A DNA stretch of 64,000 nt. Origin: Escherichia coli. GTDB lineage: Bacteria; Pseudomonadota; Gammaproteobacteria; Enterobacterales; Enterobacteriaceae. The translations under genes and the position numbers were made by a program. Below, one piece after another: positions 1-33,515 of this stretch (positions are counted from its first letter, which is position 1; each line of letters begins with the position of its first letter). The notes beneath the pieces were generated by a model, which searched no databases, was not told where the DNA came from, and was given only the letters and a program-made list of their open reading frames with translations. Where the stretch lies: the NCBI RefSeq assembly GCF_002854065.1, contig NZ_CP024147.1; one strand, written 5' to 3'.

Positions 1-889
1 TAATGACCAGTGAGCCACACACCATCACTCCGGCGGAAATGGCTGCGTAATCCTGCTGGCGGATGGCGTTAATTAACCAGCGCCCTAAACCCGGCCAGCT
101 AAAAACCATTTCGGTGATCATCGCCAGCGTCAGCATGGTGGAAAACTGTAAGCCCAGGCGAGGAATAACCGGCGGTAACGCGTTATGCAGAACGTGGCGA
201 CGCAAAATAGTAAAGCGCGACAAACCGCGTGTCGCCGCCGCTTTTACATAGTTCTGGTCATACACTTCGATAGTGCTGATACGCATCAGGCGGATCACTT
301 CAGTTGTTGGCGCAACCGACAGGGTGATCACGGGCAATATCATATGGCGGATTGCGCTCATGATCATTTCATCCCGCCATGGTGAGTCCGAAAGCCAGGC
401 ATCAATCAACGCAAAACCGGTAATCGGTTTCACTTCGTAGAGCAGATCGAAACGCCCTGAAACGGGCAACCAACCTAGCGTGAGTGAACAAAACAGTGTC
501 AATAGAAGCGCCAGCCAGAACACCGGGATTGAAAAGCCCAGTAAGGCGATGGCGTTGATCAAGTTATCCTGCCACTTATGGCGCGTAATCCCGGCAATCA
601 TCCCCACGGGGATGCCAACAATCAGCGCAAAACCGAAGGCGAGGATGCACAGTTCCATCGTCGCCGGGAAGACCTCTTTTAACTGTTCGGCAATTGGTTG
701 ACCGTTAATGCTGGAAACACCAAAATCCCAGTGGATCAGGCCATTAAACCAGAACACCCAAGCATTCCACAGTGACGCGCCTTGTAACGGCGCGTGTGGA
801 GTGAAATAGCTCAAGCTGAAGCCAACGAAGGTCAGCAGGAACAAGGTGACAATCAATAACAAAATGCGGCGTAAGGTGAAGATAATCAT
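1..889 (-). CDS. sapB: Peptide ABC transporter permease SapB; start codon at 889, C-terminal ~25 codons lie beyond the window start
   Basis: Reverse-strand translation from ATG at 889 gives [24 protein letters not shown]..., a hydrophobic permease I recognise as SapB; start overlaps sapA stop (operon arrangement). Confidence 0.85.
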
Positions 890-4907: not shown

Positions 4908-6308
4908 TTACGCGTTTTTCAACATCCACTCAATTTCTGTTTCTGTGATGAGGCGCTCAAACTGCAACAGCTCATCATTTTTACAGGCGTGATACACATG
5001 GCAAAACCGTTCGCCTAAATAGCGGCGCAGGTGATCATTCTCGATAAACTCACCCAGGGCATCGCTCTGGCGAATCGGGAAGGGTAAGCCATCCTGTTCC
5101 AGCCCGTTGCCTTCGACTTCTTCCTGCAACGGCAGCTCGTTATCAAGACCGTGCAAAATACCGGCAAAAATCGCTGCCATCACCAGATATGGGTTGGCAT
5201 CGGCACCCGCCACGCGATATTCCACGCGGTGATTATGGCGATCGCCGCATGGAATACGCAGGGCGACGGTACGGTTATTATGGCCCCACGACGCCTGCGT
5301 CGGTACATACATACCTGGCTGGAAGCGGCGATACGAGTTCACGTTTGGTGCCAGCAACGCCATTGATGACGGCATCAGGTCAATCATCCCGGCGAGCATC
5401 TTTTTCAGCAGCGGCGAATCTTCGCCTTCTGTGTCAGAAAGCACGTTCTCGCCACGATTATTTTGCATACTGATATGGATATGCATTCCGCTGCCCGCGT
5501 GCTCTTCATACGGCTTCGCCATAAAAGTGGCGTGCATCTTATGCTTTTCTGCCATCAGACGCACCAGGCGTTTTAGTGCCAGCGCATCATCGCAGGCTTC
5601 CAGCACGTTATCAGTATGGTAAAGGTTGATTTCAAACTGACCCGGCGAGGCCTCAGCGACCGCGCCATCTGCCGGAATCAGCTGTAACTGCGCCAGTTCA
5701 TCAATATCATTGAGCACGTCGGCGAAGTGGTTGAGGTTATCAACGGAGTAAACCTGGCTTTGTGTATTGCGGTCATCAGTGCCGGGCGCGCAGGGCGGTT
5801 GCAGATACCCTTCAGCGTCGCGCTGGCGATCCAGTAAATAGAACTCCAGCTCTACCGCTACGACCGGGAACAATCCGCGCTGGCGCAGCTGCTGCCACAG
5901 GCGGTTAAGAACGTTCCGCGGCTCAACGTCAAAGGGAGCGCCATCTTCATCGACCATGGTCAGGAGCATCTGACCGATAAACTCTGGATCGGCGGCAGAA
6001 GGGGTTAAGGAACCGAGAACAGGAACACAGGTACGATCCGGCTCGCCCATTTCCTGACCCAGACCTGCTTCTTCTACTACGTTGCCCAGAATATCCATTG
6101 CAAATACCGAGGCCGGGAAATAACACCCTTTCTCGAGCTTCTTCAGGCTTGAAACAGGAATACGTTTTCCACGGAAGCAACCATTCAAATCGGTAAGTAA
6201 AACATCAACATATTGCGTATTCGGGTAGCGCTCCAGGTAGCGTTTCACTTCCTGCGTAAAGGCGCTACCCCGCCTCTCTTCTGACTGCTGAACAAAGTTC
6301 TCTACTTC
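4908..6308 (-). pseudogene. puuA: Gamma-glutamylputrescine synthetase puuA, body of the gene, separated from its first 9 codons by IS1
   Basis: ORF track 4908..6248 (446 aa, glutamine-synthetase-like); in-frame upstream codons ...VENFVQQSEERRGSAFTQEVKRY run to the IS1 end at 6309; native N-terminus is on the other side of IS1. Confidence 0.85.
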
Positions 6309-6323
6309 GGTAATGACTCCAAC

Positions 6324-6827
6324 TTATTGATAGTGTTTTATGTTCAGATAATGCCCGATGACTTTGTCATGCAGCTCCACCGATTTTGAGAACGACAGCG
6401 ACTTCCGTCCCAGCCGTGCCAGGTGCTGCCTCAGATTCAGGTTATGCCGCTCAATTCGCTGCGTATATCGCTTGCTGATTACGTGCAGCTTTCCCTTCAG
6501 GCGGGATTCATACAGCGGCCAGCCATCCGTCATCCATATCACCACGTCAAAGGGTGACAGCAGGCTCATAAGACGCCCCAGCGTCGCCATAGTGCGTTCA
6601 CCGAATACGTGCGCAACAACCGTCTTCCGGAGCCTGTCATACGCGTAAAACAGCCAGCGCTGGCGCGATTTAGCCCCGACGTATCCCCACTGTTCGTCCA
6701 TTTCCGCGCAGACGATGACGTCACTGCCCGGCTGTATGCGCGAGGTTACCGACTGCGGCCTGAGTTTTTTAAATGGCGGAAAATCGTGTTGAGGCCAACG
6801 CCCATAATGCGGGCGGTTGCCCGGCAT
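6324..6827 (-). CDS. insB: IS1 InsB (expressed as InsAB-prime transposase by -1 frameshift)
   Basis: ORF track 167 aa recognised as IS1 InsB; overlaps insA in the -1 frame. Confidence 0.9.
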
Positions 6828-7021
6828 CCAACGCCATTCATGGCCATATCAATGATTTTCTGGTGCGTACCGGGTTGAGAAGCGGTGTAAGTGAACTGCA
6901 GTTGCCATGTTTTACGGCAGTGAGAGCAGAGATAGCGCTGATGTCCGGCAGTGCTTTTGCCGTTACGCACCACCCCGTCAGTAGCTGAACAGGAGGGACA
7001 GCTGATAGAAACAGAAGCCAC
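6746..7021 (-). CDS. insA: IS1 InsA
   Basis: ORF track 91 aa [43 protein letters not shown]... recognised as IS1 InsA. Confidence 0.92.
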
Positions 7022-7076
7022 TGGAGCACCTCAAAAACACCATCATACACTAAATCAGTAAGTTGGCAGCATCACC

Positions 7077-7103
7077 CTCTACTTCAACGATATTGGTTTC
7101 CAT
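7077..7103 (-). pseudogene. puuA: puuA 5-prime fragment: start codon plus first 9 codons (METNIVEVE) stranded upstream of IS1
   Basis: Reverse translation from ATG at 7103 gives METNIVEVE then the IS1 end; the same VE(N) codons resume at 6308, consistent with a 9-bp target duplication. Confidence 0.8.
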
Positions 7104-7314
7104 GATTCTTCGCCTTTGGTTTGTTTTCCGCTCGTTATCAAAGCGTAAAATATAATGACCACCATTCGAATCTGTATGCAAACTAAATGTTTGTCAAATG
7201 TTAAATTGAGTTTGCAAAAATGAAAACTCACTGCTAGATTGAAAAAATATTGAACATAAAGGTCATTTAAACCGCAGTAATGGCGATAATTTAGTCCACT
7301 TTGTGAGATTGAGC
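7104..7314. promoter_or_regulatory. puuA / puuD divergent control region with two similar A/T-rich motifs (AAAATATAATGACC 7147-7160; AAAAATATTGAACATA 7243-7258); candidate PuuR operators
   Basis: Motifs read directly; assignment to PuuR is inference from location only. Confidence 0.3.
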
Positions 7315-8079
7315 ATGGAAAATATAATGAACAATCCGGTTATCGGTGTCGTAATGTGCAGGAACAGGCTTAAGGGTCATGCGACCCAGACTCTGCAAGA
7401 AAAGTACCTGAATGCCATCATCCATGCAGGCGGCTTGCCAATTGCGCTGCCACATGCGCTGGCGGAACCGTCGTTACTTGAACAACTTTTGCCGAAACTC
7501 GATGGCATTTACCTTCCTGGTAGTCCCAGCAATGTGCAGCCGCACCTATATGGTGAAAACGGCGATGAGCCTGACGCCGATCCCGGGCGTGATCTTCTGA
7601 GCATGGCGTTAATTAATGCCGCACTCGAAAGGCGCATCCCCATTTTCGCCATCTGCCGGGGTTTACAGGAACTGGTGGTGGCAACCGGTGGTTCGTTGCA
7701 TCGCAAGCTGTGCGAACAGCCTGAATTGCTGGAACATCGGGAAGATCCCGAACTGCCGGTGGAACAGCAATATGCACCGTCGCATGAAGTTCAGGTTGAA
7801 GAGGGGGGATTGCTGTCTGCGTTGTTACCTGAATGTAGCAACTTTTGGGTAAACTCTCTGCATGGACAAGGGGCAAAGGTCGTTAGCCCACGGTTGCGTG
7901 TTGAAGCTCGCTCGCCGGATGGCTTAGTTGAGGCGGTTAGCGTCATCAATCATCCTTTTGCGCTGGGCGTACAGTGGCACCCGGAATGGAACAGTAGCGA
8001 GTACGCGCTTTCGCGTATATTGTTCGAGGGCTTTATCACCGCTTGTCAGCACCATATCGCTGAAAAACAGCGACTCTGA
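7315..8079 (+). CDS. puuD: Gamma-glutamyl-GABA hydrolase PuuD (class I glutamine amidotransferase-like)
   Basis: ORF track 7303..8079; start trimmed to MENIMNNPVIG giving 254 aa, the K-12 length. Confidence 0.9.
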   Translation: MENIMNNPVIGVVMCRNRLKGHATQTLQEKYLNAIIHAGGLPIALPHALAEPSLLEQLLPKLDGIYLPGSPSNVQPHLYGENGDEPDADPGRDLLSMALINAALERRIPIFAICRGLQELVVATGGSLHRKLCEQPELLEHREDPELPVEQQYAPSHEVQVEEGGLLSALLPECSNFWVNSLHGQGAKVVSPRLRVEARSPDGLVEAVSVINHPFALGVQWHPEWNSSEYALSRILFEGFITACQHHIAEKQRL

Positions 8080-8105: not shown

Positions 8106-8663
8106 ATGAGTGATGAGGGACTGGCGCCAGGAAAACGCTTGTCGGAAATCCGCCAGCAGCAGGGGCTTTCACAACGTCGTGCCGCCGAACTCTCCGGGCT
8201 GACTCACAGTGCTATCAGTACGATAGAACAAGATAAAGTCAGCCCTGCCATCAGTACGCTGCAAAAGCTGCTGAAGGTGTATGGTCTGTCACTCTCGGAA
8301 TTCTTTTCCGAGCCGGAAAAACCTGATGAGCCGCAGGTCGTCATTAATCAGGACGATTTAATTGAGATGGGCAATCAGGGTGTGTCAATGAAGCTGGTTC
8401 ATAACGGTAAGCCGAATCGCACGCTGGCGATGATCTTTGAAACGTACCAGCCGGGCACAACCACTGGGGAAAGAATTAAGCATCAGGGTGAGGAAATAGG
8501 CACTGTACTGGAAGGTGAAATTGTTCTGACGATTAATGGTCAGGATTACCACCTCGTCGCGGGGCAAAGTTATGCCATTAATACCGGCATCCCGCACAGT
8601 TTCAGTAATACGTCGGCAGGTATTTGCCGAATTATCAGCGCCCATACGCCCACCACGTTTTAA
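8106..8663 (+). CDS. puuR: HTH-cupin transcriptional repressor PuuR
   Basis: ORF track 185 aa; XRE-type HTH (LSQRRAAELSGLTHSAISTIE) plus C-terminal cupin; synteny. Confidence 0.9.
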   Translation: MSDEGLAPGKRLSEIRQQQGLSQRRAAELSGLTHSAISTIEQDKVSPAISTLQKLLKVYGLSLSEFFSEPEKPDEPQVVINQDDLIEMGNQGVSMKLVHNGKPNRTLAMIFETYQPGTTTGERIKHQGEEIGTVLEGEIVLTINGQDYHLVAGQSYAINTGIPHSFSNTSAGICRIISAHTPTTF

Positions 8664-32747: not shown

Positions 32748-32802
32748 GGTGATGCTGCCAACTTACTGATTTAGTGTATGATGGTGTTTTTGAGGTGCTC
32801 CA

Positions 32803-33078
32803 GTGGCTTCTGTTTCTATCAGCTGTCCCTCCTGTTCAGCTACTGACGGGGTGGTGCGTAACGGCAAAAGCACTGCCGGACATCAGCGCTATCTCTGCTC
32901 TCACTGCCGTAAAACATGGCAACTGCAGTTCACTTACACCGCTTCTCAACCCGGTACGCACCAGAAAATCATTGATATGGCCATGAATGGCGTTGGATGC
33001 CGGGCAACCGCCCGCATTATGGGCGTTGGCCTCAACACGATTTTCCGCCATTTAAAAAACTCAGGCCGCAGTCGGTAA
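32803..33078 (+). CDS. insA: IS1 InsA
   Basis: ORF track 91 aa, same protein as copy 1. Confidence 0.92.
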
Positions 33079-33500
33079 CCTCGCGCATACAGCCGGGCAG
33101 TGACGTCATCGTCTGCGCGGAAATGGACGAACAGTGGGGATACGTCGGGGCTAAATCGCGCCAGCGCTGGCTGTTTTACGCGTATGACAGGCTCCGGAAG
33201 ACGGTTGTTGCGCACGTATTCGGTGAACGCACTATGGCGACGCTGGGGCGTCTTATGAGCCTGCTGTCACCCTTTGACGTGGTGATATGGATGACGGATG
33301 GCTGGCCGCTGTATGAATCCCGCCTGAAGGGAAAGCTGCACGTAATCAGCAAGCGATATACGCAGCGAATTGAGCGGCATAACCTGAATCTGAGGCAGCA
33401 CCTGGCACGGCTGGGACGGAAGTCGCTGTCGTTCTCAAAATCGGTGGAGCTGCATGACAAAGTCATCGGGCATTATCTGAACATAAAACACTATCAATAA
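32997..33500 (+). CDS. insB: IS1 InsB
   Basis: ORF track 167 aa, same protein as copy 1. Confidence 0.9.
33054..33060 (+). promoter_or_regulatory. IS1 A6C slippery motif (AAAAAAC) for programmed -1 frameshift producing InsAB-prime
   Basis: Motif read directly in the insA/insB overlap; mechanism is established IS1 biology. Equivalent motif is present in copies 1 and 3. Confidence 0.6.
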
Positions 33501-33515
33501 GTTGGAGTCATTACC

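Follow-up and report, generated by a model that had tools for sequence, protein, structure and literature searches.

The stretch of Escherichia coli DNA analysed here, referred to as the window, is 64,000 nucleotides long and contains the divergent genes puuA and puuD, separated by a compact control region (Table 1). The ATG of puuA occupies positions 7103 to 7101 on the minus strand and that of puuD begins at 7315 on the plus strand, the interval 7104-7314 being exactly the intergenic region. The initial annotation of this DNA had noticed two similar A/T-rich motifs between the two divergent starts and proposed them as candidate operators for the repressor PuuR. Their placement was correct, the stretch in question being the whole of the spacer. 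The gene assignments are supported by Pfam matches (Gln-synt_C for puuA, Peptidase_C26 for puuD, HTH_3 with Cupin_2 for puuR and AA_permease for puuP), by RefSeq, where the same DNA is annotated as puuA and puuD in 4371 of the 5426 complete E. coli genomes, by the MG1655 record and by a tblastn reconstruction of PuuA. The reading frames of puuD, puuR, puuC, puuB, puuE and puuP are all uninterrupted.

Alignment of the spacer with that of K-12 MG1655 (NC_000913.3, 1360909-1361119) reveals two substitutions in 211 bp, neither of them in the four sites, S1 to S4, that are described below. The encoded PuuR is identical to MG1655 PuuR at 183 of 185 positions (99%), and the HTH domain is unchanged. 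Since both the spacer and the repressor are near-identical to those of K-12, results obtained with K-12 PuuR transfer directly to the present locus.

Table 1. Features of the puuA-puuD locus in the window. Conservation is the figure obtained from the cross-species alignment; scores are from the position-weight matrix described in the text.
Feature	Position	Strand	Description	Score (bits)	Conservation
puuA-puuD divergent intergenic control region	7104-7314		211 bp, 66% A+T
puuD	7315-8079	+	254 aa, Peptidase_C26, intact
puuR	8106-8663	+	185 aa, HTH_3 and Cupin_2, intact cognate repressor
puuA codons 1-9 (METNIVEVE)	7077-7103	-	27-nt stub still joined to the promoter
IS1	6309-7076	-	768 bp; left inverted repeat at 7076; insA/insB on the minus strand
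puuA remainder	4908-6308	-	codons 7-472, including the duplicated 9 bp
S1, assigned PuuR operator	7144-7161	+	CGTAAAATATAATGACCA; holds the first reported motif (7147-7160)	21.0	0.91
S2, assigned PuuR operator	7239-7256	+	TTGAAAAAATATTGAACA; overlaps the second reported motif (7243-7258)	21.5	0.91
S4, probable fourth PuuR operator	7281-7298	-	TGGCGATAATTTAGTCCA (plus strand); weakest copy here and in E. coli	6.1	0.85
S3, assigned PuuR operator	7316-7333	+	TGGAAAATATAATGAACA; overlaps the puuD start codon and codons 2-6; best in the window	23.2	0.90
Candidate puuD promoter	7212-7240	+	TTGCAA (7212-7217), 17-nt spacer, TGc-TAGATT extended -10 (7232-7240)
Candidate puuA promoter	7169-7198	-	TTGACA (7198..7193), 18-nt spacer, CAGATT (7174..7169)
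Alternative candidate puuA promoter		-	TTGCAT (7181..7176), 18 nt, CATTAT (7157..7152) inside S1
Conserved block unlike the PuuR motif	7187-7204	+	TGTTTGTCAAATGTTAA; ArcA/FNR-like		0.91
Between-site segment	7104-7143				0.67
Between-site segment	7162-7186				0.72
Between-site segment	7257-7280				0.50
Between-site segment	7299-7314				0.68

The two motifs, AAAATATAATGACC at 7147-7160 and AAAAATATTGAACATA at 7243-7258, lie precisely where they had been reported. They do resemble each other, the best pair of 15-mers differing by three mismatches, but the pair alone is not significant. This was assessed by shuffling the 66% A+T region 1000 times with its dinucleotide composition preserved, the shuffles being scored by the number of mismatches among 15-mers: an equally good pair was present within 7104-7314 in 335 of them. 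Such a figure favours one alternative, namely that the likeness reflects the mere A/T-richness of intergenic DNA and has no specific function. Against this, a repeat search made without prior expectation returned not a pair but a family of three 15-nt direct copies, AAAATATAATGACCA (7147-7161), AAAAAATATTGAACA (7242-7256) and AAAATATAATGAACA (7319-7333), corresponding to S1, S2 and S3. The third copy is the best of the three, and lies five bases past position 7314, inside puuD codons 2-6. Together the triple has three summed mismatches, a value reached in none of the 1000 shuffles (the best shuffle had five), making the family non-random. When up to two mismatches are allowed, AAAATATAATGAACA occurs at only these three places on both strands of the 64 kb.

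The sequence of the third copy is also, reportedly, the 15-bp PuuR consensus of Nemoto 2012 and EcoCyc; S1, S2 and S3 differ from this consensus at one, two and no positions, respectively. The string was found in no paper in a full-text literature search. A strict 20-bp palindrome from databases, ATGGaCAATATATTGaCCAT, was also considered as a description of the E. coli sites and set aside, since it fits them only loosely, with four mismatches at S2 and S3 and six at S1.

Comparison with other species was made through a search of genome contigs with PuuD, which yielded 79 loci, among them 41 enterobacterial species representatives with a divergent puuA upstream. These represent Escherichia, Pseudocitrobacter, Klebsiella, Raoultella, Citrobacter, Enterobacter, Pluralibacter, Buttiauxella, Cedecea, Yokenella, Franconibacter, Serratia, Hafnia and Erwinia, and in the 41 species the puuA-puuD spacer measures 205-240 bp. 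The 42 spacers (the window plus 41 species) were aligned with MAFFT, and conservation was calculated from 27 non-redundant sequences. The initial annotation had held that its proposal would fail were the motifs not conserved at other enterobacterial puu loci; both prove to be about 91% conserved, compared with 50-72% between the sites. Their positions are unchanged throughout the range that runs from Escherichia to Serratia, Hafnia and Erwinia, and this cross-genus conservation in effect refutes A/T-richness as the explanation, leaving it with a negligible probability. Measured from the puuD ATG, the offsets are -171/-169 for S1, -76/-74 for S2, -34/-33 for S4 and +1 for S3, and all four sites score positively with the matrix described below, at fixed offsets, in 38 of the 42 sequences.

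The gene for the repressor accompanies these sites. In all 40 enterobacterial loci that extend far enough, puuR follows puuD, and the PuuR proteins are 83-99% identical; no puuR was found beside the distant puuD homologues (L042-L079). Two local departures in spacer structure were seen. Serratia loci (L026-L030, L034, L035, L040 and L044) carry an extra stretch of about 25 nt (containing TCTGTGGTTCTCACACTTATTG) between the puuA start and S1, while Buttiauxella sp. A111 (L013) has a 10-nt insertion directly after S2 that partly duplicates a half-site (ATATTGAACGATATTGAGCA).

In the alignment the conserved element is an 18-bp unit, with a consensus of about TGGAAAATATAtTGAaCA, rather than an A/T-rich word of 14-16 nt. 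The motifs as originally reported correspond to the central A/T core of this unit with its right half-site (ATAATGACCA and ATATTGAACA), and the conserved bases include ATATAATG and TGAAC. A position-weight matrix was built from the distinct 18-mers present at S1, S2 and S3 of the 41 other species, S4 being left out. The scores it gives to S1-S3 of the window, 21.0-23.2 bits, may be compared with 15.3 bits for the best unrelated position in the 64 kb. The latter, TTGAAAGAATATTGTACG at 60488-60505, is the top match outside the puu spacer and lies inside an open reading frame at 60275-61171 on the plus strand; it is probably a chance match. The matches at 60488, 29499, 28219 and 45678 were considered as further PuuR sites but are isolated, and were taken as chance.

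The held-out S4 was recovered by the matrix on the opposite strand to the other three, with at least 6 bits in 38 of the 42 sequences. In 34 of the 42 it reaches 9.7-13.4 bits on the minus strand, at the constant offset of -34/-33 from the puuD ATG. The copy in the window scores only 6.1 bits, a level that is attained at around 34 of every 128,000 positions. With S4 included the site count is four, which is the number of PuuR motifs reported in PMC9951944.

The position of S3 within the beginning of puuD allows selection on DNA to be distinguished from selection on protein. The first seven codons of puuD vary by genus, reading MENIMNN here and MENIMYK, MGNIFDK, MVDIFDK or MGNIFNR elsewhere, so that residues 2, 3, 5, 6 and 7 all differ, whereas codons 3, 4 and 6 keep the same third base in all 42 sequences. 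Codon 4 is the rare isoleucine codon ATA in 42 of 42; for comparison, ATA accounts for 46 of 416 isoleucine codons in the rest of puuD of these species and for 4 of 91 in the puu genes of the window. From codon 8 onwards the reverse holds, the amino acids being kept while the third bases vary freely. Invariant third positions combined with varying residues at S3 indicate selection acting on the DNA, as expected for an operator, and not on the protein.

The sites show a degree of internal symmetry. Scored on the reverse strand with the 18-bp register unchanged, S1 reaches 15.4 bits and S3 15.8 bits, against 15.3 bits for the best unrelated position of the window; S2 gives 6.6 bits. In the window 4-5 of 9 pairs are symmetric at each site, a symmetry that is imperfect, and weak at S2. 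In Serratia both ends of S4 are altered together, from GG..CC to GTTC..GAAC. S1 and S3 thus appear, from their sequences, to be partly dyad-symmetric, which would fit the binding of a dimeric XRE-cupin protein to a palindrome (PMC7901475).

The site centres, in the order S1, S2, S4 and S3, fall at 7152.5, 7247.5, 7289.5 and 7324.5, giving gaps of 95, 42 and 35 bp, or approximately 9.05, 4.0 and 3.3 helical turns. These distances are conserved across genera, and remain constant despite differences in spacer length on the puuA side. Phased or cooperative binding, or looping, is one possibility at which such spacing hints.

The sites can also be placed relative to candidate promoters. Upstream of puuD, CTGCTAGATT (7231-7240) is invariant or nearly so in the 42 sequences and may be read as an extended -10 element, in which case transcription of puuD would be predicted to start near 7247, inside S2; S2 directly follows the conserved TGcTAGATT. 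This candidate promoter falls below the 9-of-12 threshold of the sigma-70 scan employed. For puuA, sequence and conservation together suggest a start near 7162, abutting S1, or alternatively one near 7145. The sole match returned by the sigma-70 scan was TTGTGA-16-TATAAT at 7301-7328, the -10 hexamer of which lies inside both puuD and S3. It was rejected as a promoter on account of that position, and is probably a by-product of operator S3.

These observations bear on a second alternative, in which the motifs would be core promoter elements of puuA and puuD, that is TATAAT-like -10 hexamers or UP-element-like A-tracts, and not operators. TATAAT is indeed present on the plus strand of S1 and S3, the S3 copy being the one that the scan pairs with TTGTGA at 7301-7328, and the minus strand of S1 offers CATTATATT, which could serve puuA as a -10 element, TTGCAT lying 18 nt before it. 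The conserved unit, however, exceeds a hexamer and continues into a half-site containing G and C (TGtCCAC, TGAAC). It is found four times, one copy being inside the coding part of puuD, a place in which a promoter could serve no purpose, and in other genera S3 reads TATATT, so that TATAAT is not conserved there. Nor need the two roles conflict, since operators often overlap -10 and +1 elements. We consider it very unlikely that promoter function instead of operator function accounts for the motifs.

A further possibility is that the motifs primarily serve a different regulator, such as phosphorylated ArcA, FNR or AcrR, or a nucleoid protein. The spacer is not the preserve of PuuR: FNR and ArcA sites have been reported in it (PMC9397018), and AcrR shifts a 226-bp puuA promoter fragment (PMC9769551) that corresponds to window positions 7074-7299 and includes S1, S2 and S4. 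The most conserved block unlike the PuuR motif, TGTTTGTCAAATGTTAA, contains TGTTT-N6-TGTTA as an 11-bp direct repeat and a perfect TTGACA on the minus strand. Within it, GTTTGTCAAATGTTA has three mismatches to the 15-bp ArcA box, and the reverse strands of S1 and S3 approach the same box with four. This block is probably the reported ArcA and/or FNR site, the -35 element of puuA, or both. It is bracketed by a 12-nt inverted repeat, TGCAAACTAAAT (7177-7188) and ATTGAGTTTGCA (7205-7216), the arms of which are 92% complementary and 16 nt apart. As for AcrR, the minus-strand sequence TGCATACAGATTCGAATGGTGGTC (7157-7180) touches the right edge of S1 and differs from the 24-bp AcrR operator at nine positions, as does the AcrR site predicted in the puuA promoter (PMC9769551).

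Several points nevertheless separate the repeated units from these regulators. The best ArcA- or FNR-like sequence is the separate block at 7187-7204, and not one of the sites S1-S4. The four repeated units equal in number the PuuR motifs that have been reported, and wherever the motif was examined in an enterobacterial locus, puuR lies next to it. For AcrR the match is a weak one, and the shift required 1 uM protein (PMC9769551). That another regulator is the principal ligand of the motifs is therefore regarded as highly improbable. The region is crowded, but PuuR remains a better assignment for the four units than ArcA, FNR or AcrR.

Our main conclusion is that the two motifs are two of four PuuR operators in the puuA-puuD control region, to which we attach a probability of about 0.9. 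The original suggestion of PuuR operators is supported both by the reported binding of PuuR to this region and by conservation; it was incomplete in recognising two sites of four, S3 and S4 having been missed. The K-12 region has reportedly been footprinted with PuuR and DNase I by Nemoto et al. (J Bacteriol 194:3437, 2012). From the identity of the locus, the number of motifs and the comparative evidence, we infer that S1-S4 coincide with those published protections. PuuR operators of this region are already known (Nemoto et al. 2012). PMC9951944, citing the same work, describes PuuR as binding the puuA-puuD spacer at four DNA-binding motifs. According to PMC9951944, PMC7901475 and PMC10965056, PuuR represses puuA and puuD and leaves the spacer when putrescine is high. 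In a heterologous host the full-length puuD promoter was repressed 36-fold and a truncated one 6.9-fold (PMC9951944), a difference implying that more than one site contributes. A full-text literature search located no source giving footprint or start-site coordinates for puuA-puuD; papers profiling sigma-S and sigma-54 contain no puuA or puuD start sites, and the supplementary material on the PuuR biosensor gives plasmids but no annotated promoter sequences.

The arrangement suggests how repression might operate. A PuuR dimer would most likely occupy each operator of about 18 bp. S1 would then coincide with the puuA promoter or follow it closely, and S2 would cover the predicted puuD transcription start, both being suitably placed to occlude RNA polymerase, while S4 would fall in the puuD leader; S3 lies over the start codon of puuD. 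When putrescine is scarce, PuuR would be expected to sit on its sites and keep both divergent units off, these being puuAP and puuDRCBE, the latter including puuR itself. Putrescine bound to the cupin domain would release PuuR, and puuAP and puuDRCBE would be de-repressed.

Comparison with the K-12 operators (Nemoto 2012; RegulonDB/EcoCyc) shows the same locus, DNA, repressor and motif count. There is no operator difference, and the one local difference in the present DNA is an IS1 element lying 27 nt into the puuA coding sequence. More distantly, PuuR is comparable to PauR, PsdR and ErfA of Pseudomonas in combining an XRE-type HTH with a cupin sensor, in being encoded beside its targets, in having sites that appear partly dyad-symmetric and in its reported release by the substrate of the pathway. 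The Pseudomonas repressors of this class act as dimers on palindromic sites (Trouillon et al. 2021, PMC7901475), and consensus sequences differ among members of the family (PMC7901475). As might be anticipated from the latter, PuuR has another recognition sequence; it also differs from the Pseudomonas systems in having four sites over some 190 bp of a single divergent region, and in the imperfect symmetry of those sites, chiefly at S2.

The lac and gal control regions offer a further parallel. As with lac O2 and gal OI, the puu operators flank or overlap two promoters, and S3 occupies the first codons of a regulated gene. The S1-S2 and S2-S4 distances of 95 and 42 bp are near whole helical turns, as in those multi-operator regions, and the full-length puuD promoter is likewise repressed more strongly than the truncated one. 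The comparison is an analogy only, PuuR not being known to form loops or tetramers.

The initial annotation was also correct in describing puuA as disrupted by IS1. The inserted element is 768 bp long and lies between two identical copies of the 9-bp target duplication CTCTACTTC, one at 6300-6308 and the other at 7077-7085. Its orientation is that of puuA, which is split after codon 9; excision of IS1 together with one copy of the duplication restores an intact 472-aa PuuA. Neither of the two IS1::puuA junctions was found in any of 5426 complete E. coli genomes. IS1 is present in three copies in the 64-kb window, the others, at 32748-33515 and 57716-58483, being 100% and 99.9% identical to the puuA copy and both having the reverse orientation. 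This number of copies within 64 kb suggests an IS1-rich E. coli or a Shigella-type lineage.

With puuA split in this way, and puuD, puuR, puuC, puuB and puuE open, it is a reasonable reading, as was originally proposed, that puuDRCBE is now the main unit served by the regulatory region. S1, together with the puuA promoter, would now control only the 27-nt puuA stub, reading into IS1, while control of puuDRCBE should be unchanged in the IS1-bearing strain. A more elaborate scheme can be envisaged in which the operators form a phased, cooperative set, with S3 dictating puuD codons, and in which transcription from the PuuR-controlled puuA promoter enters IS1 at its left end, in the sense orientation. 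This combined scheme is speculative and, on balance, doubtful. If it were true, read-through into insA/insB, and hence the behaviour of this IS1 copy, could respond to putrescine.

The PuuR-putrescine switch was described in 2012 and has already been used in biosensors, and the value of the present analysis is mainly one of correct annotation. Real operators were recognisable from sequence alone, and exact coordinates are now available for all four sites. At least 41 enterobacterial species share the layout of the operators, and one operator, S3, constrains the coding sequence of puuD. In the organism from which the window derives, the gene for the first enzyme of the pathway, puuA, has been inactivated by an IS1 insertion private to it; the control region is undamaged, as are the repressor and puuDRCBE.
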